From NCBI GenBank assembly GCA_902789425.1, contig CADANX010000012.1, positions 1 through 32,000 of the forward strand: a DNA stretch of 32,000 bases, written 5' to 3'. Under the pieces are notes generated by a model, which was given only the letters and a program-made list of their open reading frames with translations, had not been told where the DNA came from and ran no database searches. Positions 1-20,601 of this stretch are shown here, one piece after another. The translations under genes and the position numbers were made by a program. This stretch comes from an uncultured Erysipelotrichaceae bacterium (lineage in GTDB: Bacteria; Bacillota_I; Bacilli_A; RF39; UBA660). How positions within the stretch are numbered: position 1 is the stretch's first letter; every line of letters begins with the position of its first letter.

Positions 1-2
1 TT

Positions 3-362
3 GAAGAATACGCTAATTTATTTAATAAAGGAGCAATTAATAGATTTCAAGAAGTAAGTGCTAATGGAGAAAAAATACAAATGGAAGTATGTGCTCCTAT
101 GACTAGAGAAGAAGTTGAAAAACATATCAAAAGACTACAAGTTAAATACCCAATCGATTATCATGAAATAAAGAAAGAAAAATATAATGACCATCAATTT
201 TGTCTAAAATATACAAGAACAAATGTATTTAATGAACCACTTAAGATGATACCTTTAATTAATAAAAAAGGAATAAATAAAGTAGATAGTTATGGAGTAA
301 TAGAAGTTCCAGTACCACCTATAACTTATATTTACGCTGATAGTATAGAGGTAGAGCAATGA
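3..362 (+). CDS. Hypothetical protein, 5'-truncated by the window edge; translationally coupled to the relaxase gene
   Basis: Frame 3 is open from base 3 and continues in frame into ORF 81..362, so the true start is probably upstream of the window. The TGA stop (360-362) overlaps the relaxase ATG (359-361). No motif recognised. Confidence 0.4.
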   Translation, partial: EEYANLFNKGAINRFQEVSANGEKIQMEVCAPMTREEVEKHIKRLQVKYPIDYHEIKKEKYNDHQFCLKYTRTNVFNEPLKMIPLINKKGINKVDSYGVIEVPVPPITYIYADSIEVEQ

Positions 363-1615
363 GTTATGCAATATTTAGAAGTGAATCGATAAATACAATA
401 AAAGATTTAGGACAAATTGGTGCTCATAATAAACGAGATAAAAAAGCATATAAGTCTAATCCTGATATTGATATGTCTAAAACTAAAAATAATATAGAAA
501 TTGTTCCACTTTCTGATAAATACACTAAAGGTTATTATGAATTAGTTAAAGATTATAAAAAAGAATATGAAGAAAAACAAAAAACAACTCGTGAAGATCG
601 TAGAAAATCATTTGATAAAATGTTAGATGATTCAAATAGTGTTGTTGCTGATGAATTATTATTTACTAGTGATAATGATTTCTTTAAAAATATGAGTAAA
701 AAAGATATTAAAAAATGGGTTGATACTTGCATGGAGTTTGTTTATAAAGATTTAGGTTATACAAAAGAGCAAGTTTTACACGCAACAGTTCACATGGATG
801 AAAAAACACCACACTTACATTGTGTAGTTGTTCCTTTAATTAAGAAGTTTGATAAAAGAACAAATACAGAAAAATACACCATTTCTAAAAAGCATTATAT
901 GAAGTCTGGTGCTTATATTAGTGAACTTCAAGATAAGTATTGGAAAAGAATGAATGATAATGGCTTTAAATTAGAACGAGGTATTAAAAATAGTGATAAT
1001 GAACATATCTCTATTAAAGAATTTAAAAAGATAACAAAAAAACTAGATAATCGTATGGAAAAACAAAATTATCTAATGACTAGAGATTATGAAATATTAG
1101 AAGAAAAGTTAAAAACTTCTAAACCTACAATTACTGGCAAAGAAGTTAAAATTGATAAAGAAACTTATGATACTCTGCAAGACTTTATGAATACTTCAAA
1201 AAGAGTTATTAAAGATATGCCTAGTAATCAAGCATTATTTAAAGAACTTGAAGACTATACAAATAATTATCGTGAAATGGAAATACAAAAGCATAATGTA
1301 GAAGTTGAAGTTAGAAAATTGGAATACAAAAACGAAGAACTACAAAAAGAAAATAGAAGACTACATAATTTCTTAAATGTAATGCTCCAAACAATAAAAA
1401 AATTCTTCAATAAATTACTTCACATAGGAACTGAAAAAGATAAAGATGATGTAGTTAAAGAAATTACTTCATATCATCAACTAGATTATTATAATGATAG
1501 AGATTTACACGATATTGCCGATGGTACACCTAGAGAAGATGAAATAAATGATTATTTATATGAACAAAACTATGGTTATGATAAAGATTATGATGACCTT
1601 GATATAGACATATAA
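359..1615 (+). CDS. mob: MobV / Mob_Pre family plasmid mobilisation relaxase
   Basis: The N-terminus MSYAIFR... and the HxDExxPHxH metal-binding box in HATVHMDEKTPHLHCVVVPL are typical of pMV158 MobM-type relaxases. The C-terminal half is a long charged coiled-coil. Confidence 0.85.
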   Translation: MSYAIFRSESINTIKDLGQIGAHNKRDKKAYKSNPDIDMSKTKNNIEIVPLSDKYTKGYYELVKDYKKEYEEKQKTTREDRRKSFDKMLDDSNSVVADELLFTSDNDFFKNMSKKDIKKWVDTCMEFVYKDLGYTKEQVLHATVHMDEKTPHLHCVVVPLIKKFDKRTNTEKYTISKKHYMKSGAYISELQDKYWKRMNDNGFKLERGIKNSDNEHISIKEFKKITKKLDNRMEKQNYLMTRDYEILEEKLKTSKPTITGKEVKIDKETYDTLQDFMNTSKRVIKDMPSNQALFKELEDYTNNYREMEIQKHNVEVEVRKLEYKNEELQKENRRLHNFLNVMLQTIKKFFNKLLHIGTEKDKDDVVKEITSYHQLDYYNDRDLHDIADGTPREDEINDYLYEQNYGYDKDYDDLDIDI

Positions 1616-1618
1616 AAA

Positions 1619-1635
1619 GACGAGCAATGCTCGTC
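1619..1635 (+). terminator. Perfect 7-bp hairpin just after the mob stop (gacgagc-aat-gctcgtc)
   Basis: The inverted repeat was read directly. It has an A-run on the 5' side and no clear T-tract on the 3' side, so it is weak as a + strand intrinsic terminator. Confidence 0.35.
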
Positions 1636-1643
1636 ATAAGAAG

Positions 1644-1823
1644 ACTCTATTTCCAATAGAGTAACACACTTCTCTATTGGCAGAGCCAATAGGGTGTGTG
1701 CAAAGGAAATTTCCTTTTTGAAACCCCAAAACATAATTTGAAAGAACTAGTTGTTCAAGTAAAATTATGTTTTAAATTAATATTTTAATTTTTAAAACGT
1801 TGTAATTAAAATTAAAATATTAA
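1644..1823. repeat. Cluster of inverted repeats/hairpins between mob and the DGR target gene
   Basis: Five elements read directly. (1) 1644-1651/1655-1662, 8-bp stem. (2) 1665-1669 + 1674-1680 pairing with 1686-1692 + 1694-1698. (3) ggaaatttcc palindrome at 1705-1714. (4) 12-bp arms 1728-1739/1762-1773. (5) Perfect 16-bp arms 1777-1792/1808-1823. Confidence 0.6.
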
Positions 1824-1903
1824 TAATCTTTCACCAACAATATTGAAAAAATTATCTATTTAATATATAATATTTATATAAATAAGAATAGGATACAAAA
1901 AAT

Positions 1904-2728
1904 ATGAAAAAAATTATTGGTTCAAGATTATTTTCATTTTTATTAGGAGCCATAATATTTGGTGGAATTGGTGTAGCAAGTGCATACACTCTTTTAGCAT
2001 CCGATACATCTTTTACTCCTAAAGATACTAGTTGGAGTGTTGATAATGTAGAAGATGCATTAAATGATATTCATAGAATAATGAATACAACAGCATTTAA
2101 AAAAATATGTCATTATGTTAATAGTGATTACTCAAAAGATGCATCAGATAAATATAGTATAGGAACAAAATACGAATGTGATCCAGGAGATGGAGTAAAA
2201 AGGAACTTTTATGTGCTAAAAACTAGTGGAGAAAAAGTGGATTTAATAATGGAAGAAAATATAGCAAAAGGTACATTAACATGGTATAACGCAATGAAAT
2301 ATTTTACAGATGGTGCAGGAACTTCAATAAAATCTTCCTGGACAAATGTACAAGATATAGATTTACCAAAAGCACAAGATATAGCAAATGCTGTTGGTAG
2401 AAGTAGTTGGAAAGCAGCAGAAAACAGTACATGGTGGTGTTTAGAGAGTCATAAACAAGACTCTGGAAGTAGTCCATATTGTTATAATAATGATGGTAAT
2501 TTAGAAACATTATGGTTATGGGATTATTTAAGAGAATGTGCTAGTTGGAAATGTGAACATAGTTTAAACTCAGAATGGGCATATGGATATTGGACGAGAG
2601 ATGCAATAGTTAATACCGCGAATGCTTGGTATGTCGATAGGCATGGCGGTCTGGACTACGACACTGCATCGAATTCCACGCGCCGTGGGGTTCGCCCAGT
2701 TATAACGGTTTACCGTTCTAATCTCTAA
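1904..2728 (+). CDS. DGR target (variable) protein: N-terminal membrane anchor/signal, C-terminal DUF1566/C-type-lectin-fold-like variable domain
   Basis: Hydrophobic N-terminus LFSFLLGAIIFGGIGVASA. The C-terminus ...GYWTRDAIVNTANAWYVDRHGGLDYDTASNSTRRGVRPVITV resembles the WxxS...AWxV...G...VRPV ends of DUF1566-type DGR targets. VR occupies codons ~237-266 of 274. Confidence 0.85.
   Translation: MKKIIGSRLFSFLLGAIIFGGIGVASAYTLLASDTSFTPKDTSWSVDNVEDALNDIHRIMNTTAFKKICHYVNSDYSKDASDKYSIGTKYECDPGDGVKRNFYVLKTSGEKVDLIMEENIAKGTLTWYNAMKYFTDGAGTSIKSSWTNVQDIDLPKAQDIANAVGRSSWKAAENSTWWCLESHKQDSGSSPYCYNNDGNLETLWLWDYLRECASWKCEHSLNSEWAYGYWTRDAIVNTANAWYVDRHGGLDYDTASNSTRRGVRPVITVYRSNL
2614..2699 (+). repeat. 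DGR variable repeat (VR)
   Basis: 86 nt align without gaps to 4776..4861. The 12 mismatches are at 2630, 2636, 2642, 2648, 2649, 2654, 2657, 2660, 2681, 2682, 2684 and 2685, and each corresponds to an A in TR. The segment is a GC-rich island in AT-rich DNA. Confidence 0.92.
2704..2717 (+). other. Hairpin (aacgg-ttta-ccgtt) 5 nt downstream of the VR/TR homology end; candidate DGR cruciform/IMH-associated element
   Basis: 5-bp stem with a 4-nt loop, read directly. It is present only on the VR side; the TR flank at 4862 onward is unrelated. Confidence 0.5.
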
Positions 2729-2806
2729 TCTCTAGTGGGAGTATCAAAATATAAGCGTGAATATATGTAAAATAAAAGAATAGAGCATGAAAGAAAATAA
2801 AAAAAT

Positions 2807-2839
2807 ATTTTAGTGGGAAGTGAATCTTCCTACTAAAAT
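2807..2839 (+). other. Strong hairpin between the target gene and the MSL gene
   Basis: 14-bp stem 2807-2820/2826-2839 (one G.U) with loop tgaat. No T-tract follows, so it is not a classical terminator. Confidence 0.5.
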
Positions 2840-2861
2840 TGATTTAAAATAGGAGGAAGAA

Positions 2862-3281
2862 ATGTTATTTGATAAATATAAAAAATATAAAAATGAATAT
2901 AATGAATATATTATTTTTATTAAAAGTGGAAATTTTTATTTAACATTTAACAAAGATGCATACGTACTTCATAATGTTTTCTCTTATAAAATTAAAGAAA
3001 CAAAAAATGGATATAAATCAGGATTCCCTTTAAATGCTATTTCTAAAGTAGAAGATAAATTAAAAGAATTAAATATTAATTATATAATTATTCAAGAAGA
3101 TAATATAAAAAAGAAACAAGATTTTAAAAAGAATACTTATTTAAATTATGTAGTAATGAAAAATTATTCAATAATTTATAAAAGAATAGATATGATTAAT
3201 AATATCTTAAAAGAAAATATAGATAATAATATTGAAGATATTTTAAGTGAAATTGAAGGAGTATTATGCAAGATAAATTAA
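2862..3281 (+). CDS. MutS domain I-like small protein (MSL-type DGR accessory protein)
   Basis: Strong RBS aggagg. IIFIKSGNFYLTFNKDA...GFPLNAISKVEDKLKELNINYIIIQ parallels the MutS mismatch-binding domain (LFYRMGDFYELFYDDA...GIP...L...G..VAI.EQ). The 3' end overlaps the avd start. Confidence 0.65.
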   Translation: MLFDKYKKYKNEYNEYIIFIKSGNFYLTFNKDAYVLHNVFSYKIKETKNGYKSGFPLNAISKVEDKLKELNINYIIIQEDNIKKKQDFKKNTYLNYVVMKNYSIIYKRIDMINNILKENIDNNIEDILSEIEGVLCKIN

Positions 3282-3610
3282 TTATTGCCACTAAAACTAA
3301 GAAAACAATTGAATTAATTGAAAAGACAATTATTAATTTTCCCCATAAAGAAAGAAATTTAAAAAATAGACTTGCAAACACTTGCTATGATTTACTTGAA
3401 AATATATATTATGCTAATATCACAAAAGAAATTAACTCAATGAAAAAGATTATAGTTAATATTAAAATGATAGATTATTTTCTAAAATTAAGTTGTAACA
3501 GGGAATTGATCAGTTTAAAAAAATATGAGCAAATAGGTAATTATTTACTTGAAATAAATAAAATGGTTAACATATGGATTAAAAATGAAACGAGTAAACA
3601 AAATATATAA
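3266..3610 (+). CDS. avd: Accessory variability determinant (Avd; four-helix-bundle / 23S rRNA-IVS protein family)
   Basis: 114 aa, directly upstream of and overlapping the RT gene. FPHKERNLKNRLANTCYDLLENIYYAN fits the FPKxExxxLxxQxxRAxxSIxxNIAEG pattern of this family. RBS aaggag. Confidence 0.75.
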   Translation: MQDKLIIATKTKKTIELIEKTIINFPHKERNLKNRLANTCYDLLENIYYANITKEINSMKKIIVNIKMIDYFLKLSCNRELISLKKYEQIGNYLLEINKMVNIWIKNETSKQNI

Positions 3611-4694
3611 TGATATAACATCTTTAGAAAATATTATGAATATGTATGATACTAAAGTAAAACCAAACACAAAAAACAAAATAAAAATAGAAAAGTTTGA
3701 TGATTACTATACAGAAAATATAATGAGCATAAAAAATATTTTGGATAATAAGGTATATGATGGTGGTAAATATAACTTATTTGTCATTAAAGATCCTAAA
3801 GTAAGATTAATAATGAGTCAAAACATAGGTGATAAAATTATTAATCATTTGGTAAGTCATTATTTTTTAGTAAAATATTTTGATAAGAGTTTAATAAATG
3901 AAAATGTATCAACAAGAGTTGATAAAGGTCTTCATTATGGAATGAAATTGTTAAAAAAATATTTAAATGAATTAAAAGGGAATAGTTTTTATATTTTAAA
4001 ATTTGATATAAGTAAATATTTTTATAATTTAGATCATGATATTATTAAAAAATTAATTAGGAAAAAAATAAAAGATAAGGATGCACTTAATATATTGGAT
4101 AAGATAATTGATAGTACAGATAAAGATTATATAAATATCGAAATAGATAGATTGGAAAAATTGCATAAAGTTCAATTACCAAGATATAAAAAAGGTAAAG
4201 GACTACCTATAGGAAATATGTCTAGTCAAATACTTTCAATTATTTATTTAAATGAACTTGATCATTATATTAAAGAAGAATTACACATAAAGTATTATAT
4301 AAGATATTGTGATGATGGGATTTTAATCCATAACGATAAAGAATACTTAAAATATTGTTTAAAAGAAATAGAAAAAATTATTGATAAATATAAGTTAAAA
4401 TTAAATAATAAAACAAGTATAATTAATATTAATCAAGGATTTACTTTTTTAGGATATAGATATTATATAAGAAACAATAAAGTATATATGAATATTAAAA
4501 GCGATGTAAAAAGAAGAATTAAAAGAAGATTTAAGGGCTTAAAGAAAATGATAGAACAAGGATTAATAACCAAAGAATATTTTTTAAGTGTAGAAAATAG
4601 TTATAAATCACATATGAGTTACGGTAATTGTAATAGTTTCATCAAAAATGCGATAAATAAATATCATAATGATATATTTAATAATGAAGAATAA
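3585..4694 (+). CDS. DGR reverse transcriptase
   Basis: RT motifs present: LPIGNMSSQ (the DGR hallmark [ILV]GxxxSQ) and the YIRYCDDGILIH catalytic YxDD box. 369 aa with no maturase or endonuclease extension. Lies next to TR. Confidence 0.92.
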   Translation: MKRVNKIYNDITSLENIMNMYDTKVKPNTKNKIKIEKFDDYYTENIMSIKNILDNKVYDGGKYNLFVIKDPKVRLIMSQNIGDKIINHLVSHYFLVKYFDKSLINENVSTRVDKGLHYGMKLLKKYLNELKGNSFYILKFDISKYFYNLDHDIIKKLIRKKIKDKDALNILDKIIDSTDKDYINIEIDRLEKLHKVQLPRYKKGKGLPIGNMSSQILSIIYLNELDHYIKEELHIKYYIRYCDDGILIHNDKEYLKYCLKEIEKIIDKYKLKLNNKTSIININQGFTFLGYRYYIRNNKVYMNIKSDVKRRIKRRFKGLKKMIEQGLITKEYFLSVENSYKSHMSYGNCNSFIKNAINKYHNDIFNNEE

Positions 4695-4725
4695 TTGAAA
4701 AATTATATTAATATTGTGGTAAAAT
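4695..4725 (+). promoter_or_regulatory. Possible promoter for the TR-containing RNA
   Basis: ttgaaa (4695-4700) and an extended -10 tgg-taaaat (4717-4725). The spacer is 19 nt, which is long, so this is tentative. Confidence 0.3.
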
Positions 4726-4775
4726 TATTATGGTATATACTGAATGGTTTAGTTTTCTATGCGTCTAGGCTGTTT

Positions 4776-4861
4776 TACCGCGAATGCTTGGAATGTCAAT
4801 AGGAATGGCAATCTGAACAACAACACTGCATCGAATTCCACGAACAATGGGGTTCGCCCAG
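4776..4861 (+). repeat. DGR template repeat (TR)
   Basis: Invariant copy of VR with 28 adenines and 11 in-frame AAY codons (reads ...ANAWNVNRNGNLNNNTASNSTNNGVRP). All 12 VR differences are at TR adenines (4792, 4798, 4804, 4810, 4811, 4816, 4819, 4822, 4843, 4844, 4846, 4847). Confidence 0.92.
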
Positions 4862-5019
4862 ATTCCTTTAAAACTTTGTTTTATGTTACTATGGTATATA
4901 AAGAGAAGCTAAAGGAAACAAGTATATCCCACTCTAGAAATAGAGAAATAAATATCATAGATGATTTTAAGTGTTAGTAGTAATAATATGAAAATGATTA
5001 AAATCTATAGACTATGATC

Positions 5020-5063
5020 AAGAACTAATTTCTTATATTGTTGATTAGTTCTTTTCTTTTTTT
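5020..5063 (+). terminator. Rho-independent terminator closing the DGR cassette
   Basis: 10-bp arms aagaactaat (5020-5029) / attagttctt (5044-5053), followed by a T-rich run tttcttttttt. Confidence 0.75.
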
Positions 5064-5109
5064 ATAATTAAATATGATACTTTACTTAAAGTAATTTAAA
5101 TTAAGGTAT

Positions 5110-5138
5110 TTGACAAAAACAATTATTTTTGGTATTAT
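5110..5138 (+). promoter_or_regulatory. Sigma-A-type promoter (TTGACA - 17 nt - TATTAT)
   Basis: -35 ttgaca at 5110-5115, a 17-nt spacer, and -10 tattat at 5133-5138. The predicted start falls at about 5145, the first base of the GTGAGCAC box. Confidence 0.6.
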
Positions 5139-5144
5139 TTAATC

Positions 5145-5184
5145 GTGAGCACTGGAAAAGACTACGGTCTTCCAGTCTTTTTTT
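5145..5184 (+). ncRNA. Small RNA module 1: GTGAGCAC box + hairpin + U-tract (candidate Abi-associated RNA)
   Basis: gtgagcac at 5145-5152. Hairpin 5151-5176 with 7+3 bp, a 2-nt bulge and loop tacg. T-run at 5178-5184. Confidence 0.45.
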
Positions 5185-5241
5185 GTATATTTATAACATT
5201 TTTTACATATACTATCTATGTAGGAATATAATTTCCTACTA

Positions 5242-5277
5242 GTGAGCACACAAAAGATTATTCTTTTGTGTCTTTTT
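5242..5277 (+). ncRNA. Small RNA module 2: GTGAGCAC box + hairpin + U-tract
   Basis: gtgagcac at 5242-5249. Hairpin 5248-5271 with a 9-bp stem and loop attatt. T-run at 5273-5277. The flanks match module 1 but the stem sequence differs. A tataat at 5227-5232 lies just upstream. Confidence 0.45.
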
Positions 5278-5278
5278 C

Positions 5279-5287
5279 TGCTATAAT
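5279..5287 (+). promoter_or_regulatory. Extended -10 promoter element (TGcTATAAT) upstream of the abi gene
   Basis: tg at 5279-5280 and tataat at 5282-5287, 19 nt upstream of the ATG at 5306. Confidence 0.45.
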
Positions 5288-5305
5288 GGTTTTAGGGATG
5301 ATTAT

Positions 5306-6235
5306 ATGTCAGAAAAAACATTTTTAACTATTGATGAATTAATTGATAAAATAAAATCTAAAAATATTAGTATTAAAGATGAAAATGATGTTAGAAATAT
5401 TTTAGAAACTAATAATTATTATTTTATTATGGGTTATAAGTTTGCTTTTAAAAACATTGATGGAACTTATAAAGATAACACTTCTTTTGAAGATATATAT
5501 TCATTATATATTTTTGATAAGATGTTAAAATTAATTATTTTAGATCCTATACTTGAAATAGAACAAAAACTAAAAACAATATATACTAATAATTATAGTT
5601 ATAGATATGGCTTTAAAGTTAATGATATATTAGATCATAATAATTATGATTTATCAAATAATTATTTAAATGATACATTATCTAATTTAGATAAACAATT
5701 AAATGATTTTGGTAATAAAAATAAGGCTGTTATGTTTTATAGAAATAATCATTCATTTATTCCATTATGGGTATATATGAAGATATTATCATTTGGTATG
5801 ATTCGTGATATGTTTTATATATCAAAAAATAATGACAAAGATTACATGAAAAATAAACTAACTAATGAAAATATAAGTAGTAGCGAAGTAGCCAATATGC
5901 TAAGATTACTTGTTAGAGTTAGAAATATATGTTGTCATGATGATATTCTTTTATCATTTGTAGATGATAAGTTAGGTATTAAAACTACTAAATATCATAA
6001 TGAGTTTAAATTAAAGAAAGATATAAATGGTAATGTAATTCAAGGTAAAAAAGATTTGTTTGCTATTTTAATTGTTATTAAGTGTTTTTTAAACAAAGAC
6101 AAATTTACAATATTAATTAATAATTTAGTAATGTTAATCGAGGAATATGATAAGGAAATTGGCTCACTTAATAAAAAACAGTTATTATCAATAATGCATT
6201 TGCCAGAAAAAATTGAAAAATTAAAAGATTTATAG
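5306..6235 (+). CDS. Abi_2 family (AbiD/AbiF-like) abortive-infection protein, HEPN-type
   Basis: The N-terminal ...NYYFIMGYKFAFK..., the YIFDKMLKLIILDPILEIEQKLK block and LLVRVRNICCHDD (RNxxxH, codons 206-211, nt 5921-5938) follow the Abi_2 pattern. Confidence 0.8.
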   Translation: MSEKTFLTIDELIDKIKSKNISIKDENDVRNILETNNYYFIMGYKFAFKNIDGTYKDNTSFEDIYSLYIFDKMLKLIILDPILEIEQKLKTIYTNNYSYRYGFKVNDILDHNNYDLSNNYLNDTLSNLDKQLNDFGNKNKAVMFYRNNHSFIPLWVYMKILSFGMIRDMFYISKNNDKDYMKNKLTNENISSSEVANMLRLLVRVRNICCHDDILLSFVDDKLGIKTTKYHNEFKLKKDINGNVIQGKKDLFAILIVIKCFLNKDKFTILINNLVMLIEEYDKEIGSLNKKQLLSIMHLPEKIEKLKDL

Positions 6236-6329
6236 TGCATTTTATGTTAAAATTTGTTATAATTTATATAGAAATTAACCTAAATAAAAATTTCCAAACG
6301 TCTATAACTGACGCACCATATAAAAAATA

Positions 6330-6356
6330 AAGAACTATTTTAGTTCTTTTTTTTGT
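6330..6356. terminator. Bidirectional intrinsic terminator between abi (+) and ORF 6377..6742 (-)
   Basis: 8-bp stem aagaacta/tagttctt (6330-6337/6341-6348), A-run upstream and T-run downstream. Confidence 0.7.
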
Positions 6357-6376
6357 TTTTTTCTAAAAAAAAAGAA

Positions 6377-6742
6377 TTACTTTCCAGCAGCAATTCTTAA
6401 AGCTTTTTTAAAGCCATCTTCTTCTTTTTTATCTTCTTGTTTTAATTTTAATTCAGAATTAATAATATTTAAATACCATATTAAGTCTATTTTAGATAAT
6501 TCTTTTCCTTCAAGTTCAGGAAATACATCAGTAAAACTTTTAGTATTAACAACATGATATTTATTTAATTTATTTTCTTTATCAAAAAAAACTATTTCTG
6601 ATAATACTTCTTTATAATTATTATTAAATTCAAATATATATTGATGTTCAGTTACTTCAAAAACAACACCAATACTATTTTTGTCTTCATTTTTTTGTAA
6701 GTTTCCAATTACTAAATTATTTACTTTATATTCTTTTTTCAT
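6377..6742 (-). CDS. Hypothetical protein (121 aa)
   Basis: Start moved to the internal ATG (6742-6740, MKKEYKV...), which has a GGAGGG RBS. No recognisable motif. Confidence 0.55.
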   Translation of the reverse strand: MKKEYKVNNLVIGNLQKNEDKNSIGVVFEVTEHQYIFEFNNNYKEVLSEIVFFDKENKLNKYHVVNTKSFTDVFPELEGKELSKIDLIWYLNIINSELKLKQEDKKEEDGFKKALRIAAGK

Positions 6743-6839
6743 AAAAAACCCTCCAAAGTGGTAATTATTATAACATACTTTTATAAAATGTGTTAACATT
6801 TTTTATTTATTGTATTAAAATGAAAAAGGAGGGTTTGAA

Positions 6840-7763
6840 ATGAAGATAAAAAAATTAATATTTACAACTGGTTTTATAAGTACTTCATTTCTAACTGTTT
6901 TTTTATCGAATAAATTAAAATTTGAAAAAAATGTACTTAATCATTCAACCTATAATAAAGTACATGATGGTATTATAATTGCACATAGAGGATTTTCATC
7001 AATATATGTAGAGAATTCCGCAAAAGCAGTAAAAAAGGGATTTGAATTACCTTGCTGTGATGGTGTGGAAGTAGATGTTAGACTTACAAAGGATGGTAAA
7101 GTTGTTTTATCACATGATCCTTATGTTAATGGAATAGGTTTAATAAATGATTGTAAATATAAAGATATAAAAAATGATAAATATTCTTCTGAAAAAAAAA
7201 TGATATCTATTAAGAGTTATTTAATGAAGAAAGATGGAAACTTACTTGTAAATAGAACTAATACAGTGCAGTCATCTGAAGAAAAAATATCGCTATTAAC
7301 AAAAGTGGTAGATGATAATAATTGTAATAAAATATTAATTGTTGATATCAAATTTGATGATGATGAAGAAGTACTAATGGATAAAATTAATAATATTTTT
7401 GAAGATTATAATGAATGTTTAAATATAATTTTTCAATCTGATAATTATAAAGAATTATCTTTGATGAAAGAGAAGTTCCCCAATTATGATTATCAGCTAA
7501 TTATAAAAAAAAATAAAGATCTTAAATACTTAGATAGTGAATTTAATTATTTTTGTATAAGAAAAAATTTAATAACTAAAGATTTAGTAGATGATGCTAA
7601 AAAGAATAATAATAGAATTTGTGTTTGGACAATTAATTCTTATGATGATTATAAAAGTTTAAAAAAGAAATTAGATGATAGAATTAATGATGTTTATATA
7701 ATATCTGATTATCCTGATGAAATATGCTATTTAAATAATAAAACACTTAGATTAAAAAAGTAA
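6840..7763 (+). CDS. Membrane-anchored glycerophosphodiester phosphodiesterase (GDPD) family protein
   Basis: IIAHRGFSS...ENSAKAVKKG...DGVEVDVRLTKDGKVVLSHD matches the GDPD HRG...E.D.....DG..V..HD signature. N-terminal TM helix. RBS aaggaggg. Confidence 0.8.
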   Translation: MKIKKLIFTTGFISTSFLTVFLSNKLKFEKNVLNHSTYNKVHDGIIIAHRGFSSIYVENSAKAVKKGFELPCCDGVEVDVRLTKDGKVVLSHDPYVNGIGLINDCKYKDIKNDKYSSEKKMISIKSYLMKKDGNLLVNRTNTVQSSEEKISLLTKVVDDNNCNKILIVDIKFDDDEEVLMDKINNIFEDYNECLNIIFQSDNYKELSLMKEKFPNYDYQLIIKKNKDLKYLDSEFNYFCIRKNLITKDLVDDAKKNNNRICVWTINSYDDYKSLKKKLDDRINDVYIISDYPDEICYLNNKTLRLKK

Positions 7764-7804
7764 TATAAATATGTTATAATATTATTGTTTTTGGAGGACT
7801 TTTT

Positions 7805-8680
7805 ATGAGTAAAGTTTTTTATGAGAAATATATTGTAGATAATGAAGATACACTTTTAAACTATTTAAGAAAAGTAAATACAAAAAATTCAAAGAATAAT
7901 TATAAAACATATTTATCTAAAGATATGGTTAAAGTTAATAATAATATAATTACAAAGCATGATTTTAATTTAAAAAAAGGTGATGTAATTGAAATAAAGA
8001 ATAATTATATTATTAATAAAAAATATAATGTTAAAATAGAAATAATATATGAAGATGAAGATATGATTGTAATTAATAAACCAAGTGGTCTATTATCTAT
8101 ATCAACAGATAAAGAAAAAAATAAAACTGCGTATAGTATTATTAGAGATTATTTAATAAAGAATAATAAAAATAATAAAATATTTGTGGTTCATAGACTA
8201 GATAAAGATACATCTGGTGTAATAATATATGCTAAAAATTTAAAAACAAAATCTTTACTTCAAAACTTATGGGATAAAAATGTTATTGAAAAAGAATATA
8301 CTGCAATAATTGAAGGGAAAATGGAAGAGGATAAAGGAACAATAAAATCATATTTAATAGAAAATAATGAAGGATTTGTTCATTCTACTAAAAATAGAGC
8401 AATAGGAAGATATGCTCAAACTAATTATGAAGTATTAAAAACTAATAAAAAATACCAAATGTTAAAAGTTAATATTAAAACTGGTAGAAAAAATCAAATA
8501 AGAGTACATTTAAGTGAACTTGGTTATCCAATAGTTGGTGATAAAAAGTATGGTTCTAAAATAGATCCTATTAAAAGATTGTGTCTTCATTCGAGAAAAA
8601 TAGTACTAATTAGTCCAATTAATAAGAGAAAAATGACATTTGAGTGTAAAGTTCCGTTTAATATGAGGTCTATGTTATAA
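7805..8680 (+). CDS. RluA-family pseudouridine synthase with N-terminal S4-like domain (RluD/RluC type)
   Basis: HRLDKDTSGVIIYAKN catalytic Asp motif and GRKNQIRVHL. S4-like N-terminus ...VKVNNNIITKHDFNLKKGDVIEI. Confidence 0.85.
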   Translation: MSKVFYEKYIVDNEDTLLNYLRKVNTKNSKNNYKTYLSKDMVKVNNNIITKHDFNLKKGDVIEIKNNYIINKKYNVKIEIIYEDEDMIVINKPSGLLSISTDKEKNKTAYSIIRDYLIKNNKNNKIFVVHRLDKDTSGVIIYAKNLKTKSLLQNLWDKNVIEKEYTAIIEGKMEEDKGTIKSYLIENNEGFVHSTKNRAIGRYAQTNYEVLKTNKKYQMLKVNIKTGRKNQIRVHLSELGYPIVGDKKYGSKIDPIKRLCLHSRKIVLISPINKRKMTFECKVPFNMRSML

Positions 8681-8706
8681 AAGATATTGTATTATATCTT
8701 TTTTTT
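8681..8706 (+). terminator. Intrinsic terminator after the pseudouridine synthase gene
   Basis: aagatat (8681-8687) / atatctt (8694-8700), then tttttt. An extended -10 tgtaaaat follows. Confidence 0.6.
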
Positions 8707-8737
8707 ATGTAAAATTATTATGATAGGAGTGAACAAT

Positions 8738-10255
8738 ATGGATAAATATAATAATATGACTTTAGAAGAAAAAATAAGCTCTTTAGATCTATTAAAAGAA
8801 GAAGTAAATAAAGCAAGAGATGCTTACGAAAACAGCATGAATGAAGATTTAATAGGTGATAGTGAATTATTTAGTAGATATCAATCTTTAGAAAAAGAAA
8901 AATTTGAATTATCTAATTTAATAAATAAAGAAAGAAAATTTGAGGAAGAATCACCAACTGAAGAACTTGATGAATTAGCTAAAAAAGTAGTTAGACTTAA
9001 GAATATTAAAACTCAATATGATGTTTTAAGAGAGGATATTTCAGCATCTGGAATAGATAATGACTTAGTTAATAAAGAACTTGAACAAGTTGAAAATCAA
9101 ATAGCTGAAATGGAAAATCCAACACCTTTTGTAAAAGAAGAAAAAGAAGATAAAAAAGAAACAAAAGAAGATAAAAAAGTAAATGAAGATGAATCACCAA
9201 CTGATAAATTACCAAAAGTAGACACATATGAAATTAGTGATGTTAATATTATTTTTGATAGTAAAAATGGATACTATAAGGTTCGATATTTAAGAAATGG
9301 TAAATTAACTACAGAGGTTTTAACTGTAGATAAAAAATTATTTAAAGAAGATATAGATAATAAATATTATAAAGAAATAAATTCAAAATATGATGCAGAA
9401 GTATCAAAAAATCTAGATTATCATATAGTTGGATTACTTAAACATTTTGATGAAAAAAATAATACTAATTTAACAACAGATTATATAAATAATACATTAG
9501 ATGCTAAAATAATGTATGACTTTAGATATTTAAGAAAAATTGATAAAAAAGTATTAAGTAATCAAGATAAAAAAGAATTAAAGAGAATTGCTAAAGAACA
9601 AAAAGCTCATAGAAAAGCTAAAATATATAGATTTAATACTAAAAAAGCAGCTGCTATATTATTAGGTACATCACTTGTAGCTGCATCAGTAGGTCTTGCT
9701 AATAAAGATAATAAATCTTCAGGAACACCAACAACTGAAATAACTACTGAAGAAAAATCTGAAGAAACAATTACGGATGATAAAACTACTGAATTACCAA
9801 AGACAGAAGATGCAAAAGCAGAAAATACAGTAGTAGAAGTAAAAGAAGATGTTCCTGTTATTGAAGAAGAGGACGAAAATGAAGTAGAAATAGTTAGCCC
9901 TAACATATATGATAAGATTGAACTTAAAGATGATACAATTATGAAATATGATACATACGGATCTAGTCCAAATGCAATGAGTGATAAATTAAATTGTAGT
10001 TATTATAAAATATCATTAATTGCAATTATGAAAGATGGAGAATTTGTTAAGTATTATATTAATACAACAGGTGATAATATTAATTTAGATACAATCAAAA
10101 AAGAATGTGAAGATTCACTTGGTGGTAATATATCTCTTCAAGTTAACTTGAATGGTTATGATGAAAATGATAATAAGATATATTCTAATATTGGATGGCT
10201 TTTATCAGATGATTTAAAATATGAAAAAAGTGGGGTAAACGTCATAAAAAAGTAA
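8738..10255 (+). CDS. Hypothetical bitopic membrane protein (coiled-coil cytoplasmic part, one TM, acidic/Thr-rich linker, extracellular domain)
   Basis: Start chosen at the ATG at 8738 behind RBS aggagtga. TM segment AAAILLGTSLVAASVGLA. No family recognised. Confidence 0.6.
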   Translation: MDKYNNMTLEEKISSLDLLKEEVNKARDAYENSMNEDLIGDSELFSRYQSLEKEKFELSNLINKERKFEEESPTEELDELAKKVVRLKNIKTQYDVLREDISASGIDNDLVNKELEQVENQIAEMENPTPFVKEEKEDKKETKEDKKVNEDESPTDKLPKVDTYEISDVNIIFDSKNGYYKVRYLRNGKLTTEVLTVDKKLFKEDIDNKYYKEINSKYDAEVSKNLDYHIVGLLKHFDEKNNTNLTTDYINNTLDAKIMYDFRYLRKIDKKVLSNQDKKELKRIAKEQKAHRKAKIYRFNTKKAAAILLGTSLVAASVGLANKDNKSSGTPTTEITTEEKSEETITDDKTTELPKTEDAKAENTVVEVKEDVPVIEEEDENEVEIVSPNIYDKIELKDDTIMKYDTYGSSPNAMSDKLNCSYYKISLIAIMKDGEFVKYYINTTGDNINLDTIKKECEDSLGGNISLQVNLNGYDENDNKIYSNIGWLLSDDLKYEKSGVNVIKK

Positions 10256-14907: not shown

Positions 14908-17900
14908 ATGAAAGCTAAGTTAAATAAATTTAAAGACATCTTTATTAGTAACAATAAGAACACAATAATATCTATAATTGTTTTATTGTGTGTTTTTGCG
15001 TCTTTAACTTATTTTAGATATGCTGCTATTGCTAAAAATTATATTGCTGCTGAAGTTACTTTTAATAATCAAAATACTGGTTTAACATCAAATAATGTAC
15101 AAGATGCATTAGAAGAAATATATGCAAGATCAAATGGTGCAACAACATTTAATAAAAATTATGTTTTAATTCAATTTGAAACAGATGGTGGAACTGAAAT
15201 TCAATCACAATATGTTGCAAAAAATTCAGCAATTACAAAACCAACTAATCCAACAAAGGCAGGTAAAGGTTTTAAAGGGTGGAAAGATCAAAATAATAAT
15301 ACCTTTACAAATTTTGCAGGTGGAACTTCAACAAATTTAGTTTTAACAGCTGAATGGGGAAATTTATATACAGTAAACTTTTATAAAGTTCTTAGTAATA
15401 ATCAAACTGAGTTATATCAAACTAAAAGTGTAGTCTCAGGTGAAACAATATCTAATTTTCCTGGATCACCTGGAATAGTATCAGGGCAAAAATTTGTTGG
15501 TTGGGGTACAACAACTGCTTGTAGTACATTTTTTAATAGTACAGATACTGTAACTAAAAGTATGGATTTATATGCATGTTATACTGCTGAAACAATAACT
15601 ATTACATATGATGGTAATGGTGGAGGATGGACTCAAGGAGAAGATTTTTTAGCAGCCAAAGAAAGAACAGTTGCAAAAGGTGTAAAATTATCTCAATCAG
15701 GTAATATTCCTGAAAATCCATCAAAAGCTAATAGTGTATTTAAGTATTGGACTGAAACAGAAACTAATCAAAGTTCTCAAACTGATGCTTTACAAAATAG
15801 TTATAATGCTAATATAACTTTATATGCATATTATAAAAATTTATATACAGTAACTTTTGATTCAAATAGTGGTAGTTATGTAAGTTCAATATCCGTCGAA
15901 GATGGTAACAAATTTACAAAACCAACTAATCCTACAAGAAGTGGTTATAAATTTAAAGGATGGTATTCTAATTCAACTTTAACTACAGAGTATACTTTTG
16001 ATAATAATGGTAATTCATCATCTACTGTTACTTCTAATCTTAAATTATATGCAAAATGGACTAAAGTACATACAGTAACATTTGTAACAAATGGTGGTTC
16101 AACTGTTGAAAGTCAACTAGTCGAAGATGGAAATAAAGTAACTGAACCAACAACTACAAGAAAATATTATAATTTTGAAGGTTGGTATAGTAATATATAT
16201 ACTTCAGGAAATACTTATAATTTTAATAATTCTGTAACATCTGATTTAACTTTATATGCAAAGTGGTCTTATGATCAAAATTGTTTATTAAAGATAGTTT
16301 ATAAATTTGATGAATCAGGAATAGATAATCCAGATGGACTTAATTTTATTAAAGATAATCTTCAATTAGATATGACAAATGAAAATATGAAAAATTTATT
16401 TGCAACTCCATCTAAAACAAAAAATGATCATAATTATAATTTTGAAGGTTGGGCTTTATCTAGTGATGAGGATGAATTTGTAGGGAATATATATACAGCG
16501 GATCATCCTTATGATATAACAAGCTTATACAAGAATAATTCTTTAACCAAAAAAACATTATATCTATATGCTATATATAAAAGTGAACCAAGAACAGCAA
16601 GCTTTTATGGACAAGGTGCAACATCTGATAATCAAGAAAATATTACTAAATCTTGTTTTTCATATAATACAAGTCCTACATGTTTAGTGAGTATTCCTAG
16701 TTATTCATATAATTCATATAGTTTTGATGGATGGTCTTCTAGTGCTAATTCATTTGAAACTGTTGAATCAATGAAAAATAAAACGAGTATGTCAATAGGT
16801 TCTAATGTAAGTTATTATGCTGTATTTTCAACATCTATAGGAAAAACGTTCCATGCTAATAATAATTCTTTTGAAGGTGTTACTGCTGATACATCTACCG
16901 TTTCATGTACAATTTATAATATTCAATCATCTTGTGAAATAACAACACCAACAATTCAAGGTAATCAATATACACCTACTGTAATTGGTTATACTACAAA
17001 CCCTAAATTTACTTATGAAGAAGGTGCTGAAATACTAGGTTCAGGAATTAAAATAACTATTTCAACTAATGGCGGAGATTATTATGCGCAAACTAGTAAT
17101 GTTAGTCCTGAAACTAATACTTGGACAGCTACTTATAAAACAACTGATGGTATTGATAAAATAGGTGCTAATTCAGATTCTTGTATTATTCCTTATGTTT
17201 ATAATGGTGAATTAACTACTAATACATGTAGTATTACATTACCAAGTATTGAGTTACTAGAGGGTTATAGAAATCCAGTATGGAATGATGGAAGTAATAA
17301 TTATGCAGCTGAAAAGAAATATATATTAAGAAAAAATACTGATATTACTGCTACTTGTGCATTAAAGAGTTATAATATTTCATTTGTAACTAATGGTGGT
17401 AGTGCAGTTGAAGAAATGAAAGTTGATTTTAAAAAGAAAATTAAAGAACCTACTAAACCTGAAAGACTTGGCTATTACTTCTTAGGTTGGTTTAAAGATG
17501 AATCACTTGAAACACCTTGGGATTTTGAAAAAGATGTAGTTATGGGACATACAACATTGTATGCAAAATGGGAATTAATTTTCTATGTAATTACATTTGA
17601 TACAAATGGTGGTTCTACCGTGGATAAACAAGCACTTAATTATGGACAAAAAGTTGTTAAACCAGAAGATCCAGTTAAGATAGGATATAATTTTAAAGGC
17701 TGGTACACAGATCCAGATTTTACTAAGAAATATGATTTTAATACTGAAGTTAAATCTAATGTTAATTTATATGCAAAATGGTCTAAAGATGATGGATCAA
17801 CATTAGAAATTAAATCTAAAAATAAATCTGGTGGTTCTATAGTAGTATCAAAAAATGATGATGTTACAAGTAAGATTGCTATTTATGAAGATAATGAAGT

Positions 17901-18699
17901 AACTGGTGCAGAACTAGATAGTATTAAAAATAATTATTTTCAAATAGCAGAAGGAATATATGTAATTGATACTAAAGTAAAAGATAAAGATGGAAATGAA
18001 CTTAATGTTTCAAGTAGATACTTAACTTATAAGATTCCTGTTCCAAAAGGAATGAGTAAATATGATAACATAATGCTTTATCAAATGATTGATACAAGTG
18101 TAACTGAATTATTCTATACAATAGAAAAGAATAATATAGTATTTACTGCTCAAGGTACTGGAAGATATGTAGTTGTTAAATATGCTAAGAATGAAATATT
18201 AGATAGTAAGAATAACGAAAATGCAATAAATGTTAATAGTAGGCTTGCTGAAATAATAAAAGATTTTTATGTTTCAGAAGTTGTAGGTACAGAAAAAAGT
18301 ACAATAGTTAGAAAATTATTTGATTCAGCAGACAATGTATTTATATTTGATACAATAATACTTGATTCAAATGGTGATGAAGTAGAAACAGGAAATGAAA
18401 AAATTACATTTATTGTTAAATTACCAGATGATTTTGATGAAGATAATTTAAAACTATATCAAATTGTTGATGGAGAAAAAATTGAAGTTGATTTTGATGT
18501 TGTCAATGGTAAATTAATGTTTATTTCTAACAGTGCCGGAAGATTTGCATTAGCAGTAAATGAAGATTCAGAAGATGAAGAAACAGAAACATCTGGTAGT
18601 AAGGCACCACTATTTATTGGTCTTGGTGTTGTATTATTAGCAGCAGGTGCTACTGGTGGATTTATGTACTTTAAAAAGAAAAAAAATAATACTATGTAA
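14908..18699 (+). CDS. Large surface protein with multiple Listeria-Bacteroides (Flg_new/InlB B-repeat) repeats and N- and C-terminal hydrophobic anchors
   Basis: Repeated ~70-aa units of the form Y.V.F..NGGS.V......G.K...P..P.+.GY.F.GWY........F......L.LYAKW. C-terminus PLFIGLGVVLLAAGATGGFMYFKKKK. Confidence 0.8.
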   Translation: MKAKLNKFKDIFISNNKNTIISIIVLLCVFASLTYFRYAAIAKNYIAAEVTFNNQNTGLTSNNVQDALEEIYARSNGATTFNKNYVLIQFETDGGTEIQSQYVAKNSAITKPTNPTKAGKGFKGWKDQNNNTFTNFAGGTSTNLVLTAEWGNLYTVNFYKVLSNNQTELYQTKSVVSGETISNFPGSPGIVSGQKFVGWGTTTACSTFFNSTDTVTKSMDLYACYTAETITITYDGNGGGWTQGEDFLAAKERTVAKGVKLSQSGNIPENPSKANSVFKYWTETETNQSSQTDALQNSYNANITLYAYYKNLYTVTFDSNSGSYVSSISVEDGNKFTKPTNPTRSGYKFKGWYSNSTLTTEYTFDNNGNSSSTVTSNLKLYAKWTKVHTVTFVTNGGSTVESQLVEDGNKVTEPTTTRKYYNFEGWYSNIYTSGNTYNFNNSVTSDLTLYAKWSYDQNCLLKIVYKFDESGIDNPDGLNFIKDNLQLDMTNENMKNLFATPSKTKNDHNYNFEGWALSSDEDEFVGNIYTADHPYDITSLYKNNSLTKKTLYLYAIYKSEPRTASFYGQGATSDNQENITKSCFSYNTSPTCLVSIPSYSYNSYSFDGWSSSANSFETVESMKNKTSMSIGSNVSYYAVFSTSIGKTFHANNNSFEGVTADTSTVSCTIYNIQSSCEITTPTIQGNQYTPTVIGYTTNPKFTYEEGAEILGSGIKITISTNGGDYYAQTSNVSPETNTWTATYKTTDGIDKIGANSDSCIIPYVYNGELTTNTCSITLPSIELLEGYRNPVWNDGSNNYAAEKKYILRKNTDITATCALKSYNISFVTNGGSAVEEMKVDFKKKIKEPTKPERLGYYFLGWFKDESLETPWDFEKDVVMGHTTLYAKWELIFYVITFDTNGGSTVDKQALNYGQKVVKPEDPVKIGYNFKGWYTDPDFTKKYDFNTEVKSNVNLYAKWSKDDGSTLEIKSKNKSGGSIVVSKNDDVTSKIAIYEDNEVTGAELDSIKNNYFQIAEGIYVIDTKVKDKDGNELNVSSRYLTYKIPVPKGMSKYDNIMLYQMIDTSVTELFYTIEKNNIVFTAQGTGRYVVVKYAKNEILDSKNNENAINVNSRLAEIIKDFYVSEVVGTEKSTIVRKLFDSADNVFIFDTIILDSNGDEVETGNEKITFIVKLPDDFDEDNLKLYQIVDGEKIEVDFDVVNGKLMFISNSAGRFALAVNEDSEDEETETSGSKAPLFIGLGVVLLAAGATGGFMYFKKKKNNTM

Positions 18700-19406: not shown

Positions 19407-20601
19407 ATGATAGATATTAATGTAATAAGAGAAAATAGAGATTTAGTTAAAGAAAATATTAAAAAGAAATTTCAAGATAAAAAATTAGTTTTAGTTGATG
19501 AAGTATATGAAATGGATATAAAACTAAGAAAAATTAAAGTAGAAGTTGAAGAACTTAGATCAAAAGTAAATTCATTAAGTAAAGAAATTGGTTCTTTAAT
19601 GAGAGATGGTAAAAAAGAAGATGCTGAAAAAATAAAAGAAGAAGTTAATAAATATAAAGAAAAGATTCCAATGCTTTCAGAAGAAGAGTCTGCTTTAGAA
19701 GATGAAATAAGATCAAGAATGCTATTAATTCCTAATTTTATAGCACCTGATTGTCCTATTGGTGAAGATGATTCAAAAAATGTTGAGATAGAAAAAATTG
19801 GAGAACCAGTTATTCCAAAATATGAAATTCCATATCATGCTGATATAATGGCAAGTTTTAATGGTATAGATAAAGAAGCTGCTGGTAAAGTTGCAGGTAA
19901 TGGGTTTTATTATTTAATGGGTGATATTGCAAGACTTCATAGTGCTGTTTTATCATATGCTAGAGATTTTATGATAGATAAAGGGTTCACTTATTGTATT
20001 CCTCCATATATGATAAGAAGTGATGCTGTAGATGGAGTTATGTCTTTTGAAGAAAAAGAAGCTATGATGTATAAAATTGAAAATGAAGATTTATACTTAA
20101 TAGGAACATCAGAACATTCTATGATTGCTAAATTTAAAAATCAAATACTTGATAAAAATGAATTACCTATAACTATGACTTCATATTCACCATGTTTTAG
20201 AAAAGAAGTAGGTGCTCAAAATGCTTAACTATACTGTAGAATTATTTAGAAGTCTAGATATTCCAGTAAGAAAACTTGTATGTTGTTCAGGTGACCTTGC
20301 TGATTTAAAATATAGATCATGTGATGTCGAAGCATTTTCACCAAGACAAAATGACTATTTTGAGGTAGGTTCTTGTTCTAATCTAACTGATGCACAAGCA
20401 AGAAGACTTGCTATAAGATATAAAGATGAAAATGGTAATAAAGTACTTGCACATACTTTAAATAATACAGTTATAACACCACCAAGAATGCTTATTGCTT
20501 TTCTTGAAAATAACTATAATGAAGATGGATCAATTAATATTCCAGTTGCTTTAAGACCATATATGGGTGGTAAAGAAAAACTTATACCAAATAATAAATA
20601 G
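19407..20601 (+). pseudogene. serS: Seryl-tRNA synthetase, disrupted (two frames: 19407..20228 and 20212..20601; class II motif 2 missing)
   Basis: The first ORF ends ...SYSPCFRKEVGAQNA*, just at the start of motif 2. The second ORF, in the +1 frame, resumes at ...MLNYTVELFRSLDIPVRKL.CCSGDL... and carries motif 3 (LNNTVITPPRMLIAFLEN). The RvHQFxKvE segment is absent. Confidence 0.65.

Follow-up and report, generated by a model that had tools for sequence, protein, structure and literature searches.

The question raised by this locus is whether a cassette near the start of a very AT-rich contig is a complete diversity-generating retroelement (DGR), and whether it has diversified its target gene in nature. 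The DNA analysed, referred to below as the window, is a 32,000-nt stretch of contig CADANX010000012.1 (GCA_902789425.1) from an uncultured Erysipelotrichaceae bacterium (positions 1 to 32,000, forward strand), with a GC content of 23.6%. A first-pass annotation of the letters alone had proposed a complete DGR with two accessory genes and with the template repeat (TR) downstream of the reverse transcriptase (RT) gene. All of these parts were found where they had been placed, and it is highly probable that positions 1843-5063 hold a complete DGR of the Msl/Avd class that is functional now or was so recently. It is a DGR of an already described type, combining a MutS-like protein, Avd and an RT. 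Public metagenome assemblies show that diversification of its variable repeat (VR) has really occurred in nature.

Layout of the cassette

The cassette measures about 3.2 kb from promoter to terminator and contains the following features.

1843..1871, + strand: promoter-like site TTGAAA-17-TATAAT (11/12 matches in a consensus scan; a pattern match only), 33 nt upstream of the target start
1904..2728, + strand: DGR target (variable protein) gene, 274 aa; open reading frame (ORF), AlphaFold2 models and fold matches
2614..2699, + strand: VR, an 86-nt repeat of the TR, covering about the 28 last variable-region codons of the target
2686..2699, + strand: GC-rich 14-nt 3' block of the VR, TGGGGTTCGCCCAG; direct reading, identical in TR 4848-4861
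2862..3281, + strand: Msl (MutS-like) accessory protein, 139 aa, isoelectric point (pI) 9.0; Pfam MutS_I
3266..3610, + strand: Avd accessory protein, 114 aa, pI 9.5; Pfam bAvd
3585..4694, + strand: DGR reverse transcriptase, 369 aa; RVT_1, IGNMSSQ and YCDD motifs
4776..4861, + strand: TR, with 28 adenines and 11 AAY codons in the VR frame
4862..5018, + strand: conserved structured RNA directly 3' of the TR, 157 nt; covariation and a sub-threshold match to Rfam RT-14
5020..5063, + strand: intrinsic-terminator-like hairpin and T-run, end of the DGR transcript; sequence and fold

The ORFs (1904-2728, 2862-3281, 3266-3610 and 3585-4694) and their Pfam matches bear out the annotated gene order of target, MutS-like gene (msl), avd, RT, TR and terminator. 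The two gene overlaps that had been pointed out are also real and measure 16 nt for msl/avd (3266/3281) and 26 nt for avd/RT (3585/3610).

The VR/TR repeat pair

A repeat search of positions 1-9000 returned one long direct repeat, formed by 2614-2699 and 4776-4861, which is 86 nt long, ungapped and 86% identical and is exactly the segment that had been recognised at the 3' end of ORF 1904..2728. Compared base by base, VR and TR differ at the 12 positions first reported, and the TR base is A at all 12 (six A>G, four A>C, two A>T) with no mismatch at any other TR base; the probability that 12 random mismatches would all strike A is about 2e-7. Twenty-two of the 28 adenines in the 86-nt TR lie within 11 AAY codons, and every mismatch falls at codon position 1 or 2 of an AAY codon in the frame of ORF 1904-2728. 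The homology breaks off abruptly on both flanks. The two copies are indeed GC-rich islands (59% for the VR and 48% for the TR against 23.6% for the window). The VR ends 29 nt before the target stop codon, the protein continuing for 9 residues past it, and the TR starts 82 nt past the RT stop. No further VR-like copy is present in the 32-kb window.

The last 14 nt, where the homology ends, are GC-rich and identical in VR and TR, and related 3' ends occur in relatives (GTTCGCCCAG, GTCCGCCCAG and similar). This block resembles the initiation of mutagenic homing (IMH) sequence and, by analogy with the Bordetella IMH, may have the same function.

A 72-aa ORF lying over the TR (4759-4977) is spurious. 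At its N-terminal end it simply repeats, from the TR, the reading frame of the VR (FTANAWNVNRNGNLNNNTASNSTNNGVRP). This ORF has a weak match to the target family and should not be annotated as a gene.

Variation of the VR across populations

VR variants were reached through members of the 90%-identity cluster of the target protein and were compared on assembled metagenome contigs, that is, on consensus sequences and not on reads. The cluster has three full-length members, identical except in the last ~30 residues. Three VR haplotypes were found on backbones at least 99.7% identical, and a fourth on a 93% backbone. One contig (L011) has 18 differences from the window over 6,728 positions; 16 of these are inside the VR, all at sites that are A in the TR, and none is in the TR. 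Three others (L008, L009 and L010) have in common a third haplotype, which departs from the window at 9 VR positions, again all TR-A sites, and at none in the TR. In the 93%-identical lineage (L019) there are 17 VR differences, 15 at TR-A sites and the other two synonymous. When the four haplotypes are taken together, at least one substitution is seen at 24 of the 28 TR-A sites, and the TR itself is invariant in all seven near-identical contigs that cover it. Contig L012 is 100% identical to window positions 1-6728, and the first near-identical contig compared (L001) has a VR identical to that of the window.

With 16 changes inside the VR and 2 outside it in 6,728 nt, the VR evolves much more rapidly than the remainder of the element. 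The expectation that VR variability would be confined to TR-A sites while the TR stays constant was upheld on assemblies, by three haplotypes on backbones at least 99.7% identical.

The 133-nt spacer between target and msl contains a cluster of single-nucleotide polymorphisms (SNPs) among near-identical copies (2763, 2778, 2783, 2787, 2789, 2793, 2831 and 2832). An 11-bp hairpin also lies in this spacer (2810-2820/2826-2836), and its pairing is preserved by both SNPs that fall in the 3' arm (G.U>G-C and U-A>U.G). A regulatory or processing role is possible for positions 2763-2836, which separate the target from the accessory genes.

Reverse transcriptase and accessory proteins

The RT (3585-4694) has a Pfam RVT_1 match and carries both the DGR hallmark PIGNMSSQ and the YCDD box that had been read from its translation; IGNMSSQ is invariant in 16 family members. 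A profile of 16 homologues gave PDB entry 8ub7, a 328-aa RT, as the best solved relative (E 7e-32), ahead of group II intron RTs, the best of which scored 4e-21, and of retron-type RTs at 5e-17. In the profile comparison that had been proposed as a check, a DGR RT is thus favoured. The printed sequence of 8ub7 includes KRHRNLIDQITTWENL... and IGSLTSQ, aligned to IGNMSSQ, and from this sequence we take it to be the Bordetella phage DGR RT (bRT). A literature search for the PDB code 8UB7 gave no match.

Msl matches Pfam MutS_I (MutS domain I) with 33.2 bits against a cut-off of 20.6, and the only PDB sequences that it matched are those of Thermus (Taq) MutS, GNFYL corresponding to GDFYE and GFP to GIP. 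Among 77 distinct Msl sequences from related loci, the Gly, the Phe, the Tyr and an Asp further downstream hardly vary, whereas several residues occur where MutS has its Glu (E 19, V 14, N 13, L 9). Msl retains the mismatch-stacking Phe of MutS but not the neighbouring Glu. In an exhaustive search, Msl-like proteins number 622 cluster representatives at E<=1e-3, and the best 150 of these are mostly ~100-150 aa long. Any novelty of the MutS-like gene that the annotation may imply does not hold, as Msl is one of four DGR accessory classes published by Wu et al. in 2018 (PMC5758913). In that survey 16 of 372 DGRs had Msl, avd being present every time, and the Legionella DGR has one too (PMC5758913). 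Their Architecture D is defined by a small (112-283 aa) MutS-like protein in the cassette, with avd and without HRDC (PMC5758913). The window Msl is 139 aa long, matches MutS_I and lies beside avd, and no cassette ORF has an HRDC match in Pfam. Msl is also found in the Bacteroides Bfr, Bth and Bun DGRs (bioRxiv 10.1101/2024.11.15.621889). The second accessory protein, Avd, matches Pfam bAvd with 47.5 bits against a cut-off of 40.

Homologues of the RT number more than 4,500 at E<=1e-10, and its relatives occupy at least 557 loci in GTDB species-representative genomes; the best 80 of these at least 557 loci belong mostly to uncultured Bacilli, 'Tenericutes' or Erysipelotrichaceae metagenome-assembled genomes (MAGs) from gut and rumen. 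In 100 related loci, the RT is accompanied by Msl in 93 and by Avd in 94. The commonest order is Msl-Avd-RT with overlapping ORFs and Msl directly upstream of avd, and the position of the TR varies. Of the 91 loci that were scanned, 42 yielded A-biased TR/VR pairs, and 8 of these 42 are the window or near-identical copies of it.

A structured RNA 3' of the TR

A match to Rfam RT-14 (RF02921) starts at the first base after the TR (4862-5006) and spans the full length of the model (1-144 of 144; 35.2 bits, E 0.003 in a 381-631-nt search, where it was the one match). The whole-window Rfam gathering scan and a tRNA scan gave no match, nor did an Rfam E-value scan of seven relatives, a search too broad to pick up a weak motif. 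Because the RT-14 match is below threshold, covariation was tested independently on our own alignments of relatives. The helices are as follows.

4863-4870/4910-4917, + strand: RNA helix P1
4880-4886/4896-4902, + strand: RNA helix P2
about 4932-4935/4942-4945, + strand: RNA helix P3
4963-4970/4998-5005, + strand: RNA helix P4, enclosed by P5
4954-4960/5012-5018, + strand: RNA helix P5, outer stem

In the TR-3' flanks of 18 sequences, 87.6% of P1 and P2 positions are paired, compared with 66.7% in shuffled controls (0 of 500 reach the observed value) and 43-55% when the helices are slid, and double-sided changes occur in 14 of 15 pairs. The 3' hairpin P4 has compensatory changes in 13 of 14 pairs. 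These helices are equivalent to those of the RT-14 model. P5 reads ATCATAG/CTATGAT in the window, ATCACAG/CTGTGAT in L002 and ATCGTAG/CTACGAT in L020, and is fully paired in 8 of 9 sequences. The motif follows the TR directly in both layouts of the family, whether the TR comes after the RT or, as in many relatives, lies between target and msl. In Bordetella, the spacer RNA primes cDNA synthesis. By analogy, the 157-nt RNA is probably the priming "spacer" module of the DGR RNA.

The terminator annotated after the TR is seen both in the sequence and in the fold, with hairpin arms at 5020-5029/5044-5053 and a T-run ending at 5063. It is AT-rich, and a GC-biased consensus terminator scan missed it. 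Just past the RT stop (4695-4725), TTGAAA is followed 19 nt on by TGgTAAAAT, an extended -10-like element noticed by eye with a spacer beyond the range of the scan. Judged on its motifs, this site could give the TR and the 3' RNA a promoter of their own.

The target protein

The target matches no Pfam family and has no meaningful NCBIfam, PADLOC or PDB sequence match. Its 99 homologues are ~260-290 aa long and all metagenomic. AlphaFold2 with the homologue alignment gave a predicted local distance difference test (pLDDT) score of 86.5 for the full-length protein, and 94.7 with a predicted TM-score (pTM) of 0.92 for residues 62-274. The best PDB fold match is 9qa6, the IgA peptidase of Thomasclavelia ramosa (prob 0.93), the N-terminal domain of which is DUF6273 (PMC12402451). 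It is followed by 14 matches that are without exception C-type lectin-like domains (LOX-1 at prob 0.80, CD94/NKG2A, CD23 and MGL among them), with mannose-binding protein C further down the list. In a library of predicted viral structures (BFVD), DUF6273 proteins were matched at prob 1.0 and DUF1566 at 0.91. The Pfam model PF19789 (DUF6273) has weak matches in 6 of 51 homologues (best E 2e-4) and none in the window protein, and the tie to DUF6273 comes from the likeness of the predicted structures. DUF6273 is a C-type-lectin-like DGR target of Firmicutes phages with the VR at its C-terminus (PMC10743442, PMC11792537). On these models, the window target is likely to be a distant DUF6273-like protein with a C-type lectin fold.

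The protein starts with MKK, a hydrophobic stretch and V/A-x-A (residues 1-27, nt 1904-1984), and Ala27 is invariant in 51 homologues. Neither a lipobox Cys nor a C-terminal sorting signal is present in the target, and four Cys are nearly invariant in its mature part. Export with cleavage by signal peptidase is probable, and with its Sec-type N-terminus the protein would act outside the cytoplasm. The N-terminal membrane anchor proposed earlier was right as to the hydrophobic segment. This segment ends in a conserved small-x-Ala motif, so that a cleavable Sec signal peptide, and hence a secreted protein, appears at least as likely as an anchor.

In related loci with 62% identical RTs (L005 3392-4393, also L006 and P0199), the same lectin-type variable domain is fused to a canonical type IV pilin N-terminus (MKKG|FTLVELLAVIII..., Pfam N_methyl), and a second pilin gene adjoins it; that DGR thus diversifies a modular type IV pilin. 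In the literature library searched, no paper joined a DGR with a type IV pilin or prepilin.

The carrier element and its genomic context

The cassette lies within a larger element that extends to the left of the window and has these further features.

1..362, + strand: large serine recombinase gene, 3' end; the full gene encodes 599 aa and starts 1,437 nt upstream of the window
359..1615, + strand: Mob_Pre relaxase; Pfam PF01076, E 1.8e-31, 110 bits against a cut-off of 25.5
5306..6235, + strand: AbiD/Abi_2 abortive-infection-type gene; Pfam Abi_2 E 1.9e-33, PADLOC AbiD E 1.4e-45
6302..6318, no strand: right end of the 8,339-bp element (...CTATAACTGACGCACCA); homology with L008 and L009 stops at 6318

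Joined from window positions 1-6318 and from positions 5545-7642 of L100, which is the window's own copy with wider flanks, the element measures 8,339 bp, has its left end 2,020 nt upstream of window base 1 and encodes a 91-aa ORF, the 599-aa serine recombinase (Pfam Resolvase and Recombinase, L100 6205-8004), Mob_Pre, the DGR and AbiD. The DGR is the largest cargo and AbiD is a second one, outside the DGR. The left junction comes directly after a tRNA-Arg(TCT) gene (L100 5545-5621, ARAGORN), and the CACCA at the right end at 6318 (...GACGCACCA) repeats the 3' end of this tRNA. In L008 and L009, a copy of the element lies after another tRNA-like 3' end, which is truncated by the edge of the locus and has no ARAGORN call, and its right flank differs as well. 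Having its own integrase and relaxase, no conjugation machinery, discrete ends and different chromosomal sites, the element matches the genomic definition of an integrative mobilisable element (IME), and would be mobile as judged from its gene content and ends. The Mob gene of L009 is mosaic: 65 differences lie close together towards its 5' end and point to recombination among variants of the element. Past the element, positions 6319-32000 are ordinary chromosome and encode GDPD, an RluA-type pseudouridine synthase, RNase T, FTHFS, radical SAM and surface proteins. The view that the variable domain is displayed by the cell and not by a phage tail is supported in its cellular part and is refined here to a DGR on an IME; in view of the probable signal peptide, secretion is at least as likely as anchoring.

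Between the DGR terminator and AbiD, a strong promoter-like site at 5110-5138 (TTGACA-17-TATTAT with TG) is followed by two related units, each made of GTGAGCAC, a hairpin and a U-run (about 5143-5185 and 5240-5282). Positions 5110-5290 fold far better than shuffled sequences (z -6.1) and resemble RCd22, the two-motif RNA antitoxin of the Clostridioides difficile AbiF system (PMC12373285). The Rfam abiF motif was not matched upstream of AbiD at E<=1.

In the chromosomal part, a seryl-tRNA synthetase gene (19407-20601) appears to be split into two ORFs, of 273 aa and 129 aa, in different frames. Where they meet, some of the catalytic core around motif 2 has apparently been lost. Possible reasons are decay into a pseudogene, a mistake in the assembly or the presence of another copy elsewhere. 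Two further proteins, one of 1,263 aa with six Listeria-Bacteroides repeat domains (14908-18699) and one of 465 aa carrying a bacterial surface Ig-like domain (20687-22084), indicate that the organism has other large surface proteins.

Weighing the alternatives

Several results weigh against a complete and recently functional DGR. Avd matches the NCBIfam model DivGenRetAVD at E 1.5e-15 but with 57 bits, below the cut-off of 80, and the RT-14 score of 35.2 is below the gathering score of 48.1, as are the scores of the 15 relatives tested. The C-type lectin-like fold matches of the target are weak (E 3e-3 to 1, TM-scores 0.2-0.36), and Mtd and TvpA are absent among its top Foldseek matches. A 5-bp hairpin after the VR (2704-2717, z -1.8), considered as a counterpart of the Bordetella cruciform, was rejected as a conserved element and is not counted with the DGR: 27 of 35 relatives have no hairpin there, and one at least equally long occurs in 23% of random control windows. 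Finally, the VR haplotype of the window is unchanged in at least 8 assemblies from several samples, so that retrohoming must be infrequent or regulated, or the haplotype is under selection.

This last observation is also a ground for supposing that the DGR is a fossil, which diversified its target in the past and is now inactive, the VR haplotypes being old alleles spread by transfer of the element. The at least 8 assemblies are independent and one of them has 9 SNPs elsewhere, and the RT reads YCDD where the consensus of 16 family members is YMDD. We regard this explanation as improbable. All four ORFs are intact with overlaps typical of the family, the TR is perfectly conserved, the 16 VR differences stand alongside just 2 others in 6,728 nt, and YXDD with a variable X remains a catalytic box.

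It is very unlikely that the DGR is borne by a prophage and diversifies a tail fibre or receptor-binding protein, even though DUF6273-type targets are typical of Firmicutes phage DGRs and an Abi gene adjoins the cassette. No phage structural, packaging or lysis genes accompany it, the whole element being 8,339 bp, and the target has a Sec-type N-terminus. The RTs of Bacilli MAGs are 45-68% identical to that of the window and those in IMG/VR only 25-38%, save for one 22-residue fragment, and megablast of positions 1-8000 against plasmid and phage collections gave no match.

That the RT is of another kind (group II intron, retron or DRT/Abi) and works with AbiD, the repeat being coincidental, is extremely unlikely. 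Its best NCBIfam match is a group II intron RT/maturase model, its PADLOC matches include DRT-type RT models, and AbiD lies 600 nt downstream. The 98.6 bits of the NCBIfam match are, however, far under the cut-off of 300, such matches reflect the shared RT fold, and no DGR-RT model is among the NCBIfam matches. A DGR RT is supported by 8ub7 as the best solved relative, by Avd, by the adenine-only TR/VR mismatches and by the population variation, and neither intron RNA domains nor an Rfam group II or retron match is present. Equally hard to credit is an origin of the VR differences without any reverse transcription, by gene conversion or homologous recombination between alleles on which diversifying selection acts. 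The element is mobile and the Mob gene of L009 is mosaic, but neither recombination nor ordinary mutation would confine 9, 16 and 12 differences to the A positions of an invariant repeat 2.1 kb away.

Proposed mechanism

For the DGR reading, the following sequence of events is proposed. A single transcript would run from about 1871 to the terminator at 5063, carrying target, msl, avd, RT, TR and structured RNA. On established DGR biology, the RT with Avd would copy the TR RNA into cDNA and misincorporate opposite template adenines. Priming would probably involve the 157-nt RNA 3' of the TR, which has a structure evident from covariation and a role suggested by Bordetella. The cDNA would then replace the VR at the 3' end of the target, the outcome of which is seen in a VR that differs from the TR, and between strains, only at TR-A sites, the TR being invariant. 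In B. ovatus, deletion of the host mutS raises retrohoming 5- to 10-fold. Msl probably binds the mismatch-dense cDNA:VR heteroduplex, and may shield it from host mismatch repair or aid fixation.

Comparison with known systems

The closest described systems are the Msl DGRs of Legionella pneumophila and Bacteroides (Architecture D, PMC5758913), which likewise combine a MutS-domain-I protein, Avd and a DGR RT without HRDC, and have adenine-specific VR/TR differences, a cell-surface or extracytoplasmic target and a horizontally transferred carrier. The Bacteroides Msl DGRs are carried on functional integrative and conjugative elements (bioRxiv 10.1101/2024.11.15.621889), whereas the carrier here is a minimal 8.3-kb mobilisable element without conjugation machinery. 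The host also differs, being an uncultured member of the Bacilli with 23.6% GC and not a Proteobacterium or Bacteroides, as does the target, which is a 274-aa DUF6273-like protein with a Sec-type signal in place of a lipoprotein (LdtA) or a type V pilus tip. Msl is basic here (pI 9.0), in contrast to the set of 2018, which is neutral on average (PMC5758913).

The DGR of Bordetella phage BPP-1 (mtd-avd-TR-brt) shares the [LIV]GxxxSQ motif of the RT, Avd, adenine mutagenesis between TR and VR, a VR at the 3' end of the gene for a protein with a C-type lectin fold (a likely one in the window target), GC-rich identical VR and TR 3' ends and an RNA 3' of the TR. In the window, the TR and its 3' RNA are downstream of the RT, an avd-RT-TR core of type 'B2' (PMC5758913). 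Unlike BPP-1, the window has an extra gene for Msl, no conserved hairpin after the VR and a cellular IME as carrier, and its RNA resembles Rfam RT-14, whereas the BPP-1 motif is RT-10. RT-1 to RT-19 are orphan motifs near RT genes, RT-10 lying between TR and brt in BPP-1 (PMC5737381), and no function was given to RT-14 in the 2017 paper (Weinberg et al., PMC5737381). The window RNA has the four-helix layout of RT-14 (RF02921), its conserved UAGUA...GAA internal loop and an RT gene nearby, but is 12 nt longer and has the outer stem P5.

Tentaclins (PMC10743442) and the targets of Faecalibacterium prophages (PMC11792537) have a globular C-type-lectin-like domain with the VR at the C-terminal end, as is likely for the window target from its structural matches to DUF6273 proteins. 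The window protein differs from these in having no Pfam match, a Sec-type signal and a non-phage element as carrier.

Significance

Msl-type DGRs, DGRs on conjugative elements and the avd-RT-TR core have all been published, and the current picture of DGRs is unchanged by this finding. Some modest novelty lies in the carrier, a minimal IME, in a target family that is uncharacterised, in an RNA module backed by covariation and in the size of the Bacilli lineage. It is possible, though doubtful, that the observations combine into a bolder reading, in which the 157-nt RNA is a self-priming spacer, Msl is a dedicated anti-mismatch-repair factor shielding the cDNA:VR heteroduplex, and the element, with its minimal 8.3-kb mobilisable carrier and a lectin target bearing just a signal peptide, is a transferable, self-contained unit able to endow whatever cell receives it with a secreted, antibody-like and hypervariable binder, beside an Abi defence gene. 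If true, the self-priming role of the RNA would provide a function for an orphan RT-14-like class at hundreds of loci in Bacilli.

The window holds a compact cellular DGR with an activity documented by public metagenome assemblies alone and with all its cis and trans parts, the covariation-supported RNA included, delimited to the base. It represents a large, little-studied DGR lineage of uncultured gut and rumen Bacilli, and its minimal mobilisable carrier adds to the published evidence for horizontally moving 'evolvability modules'. It is tractable for two questions, the role of Msl given the restriction by MutS, and the priming RNAs of DGRs beyond the Bordetella phage.

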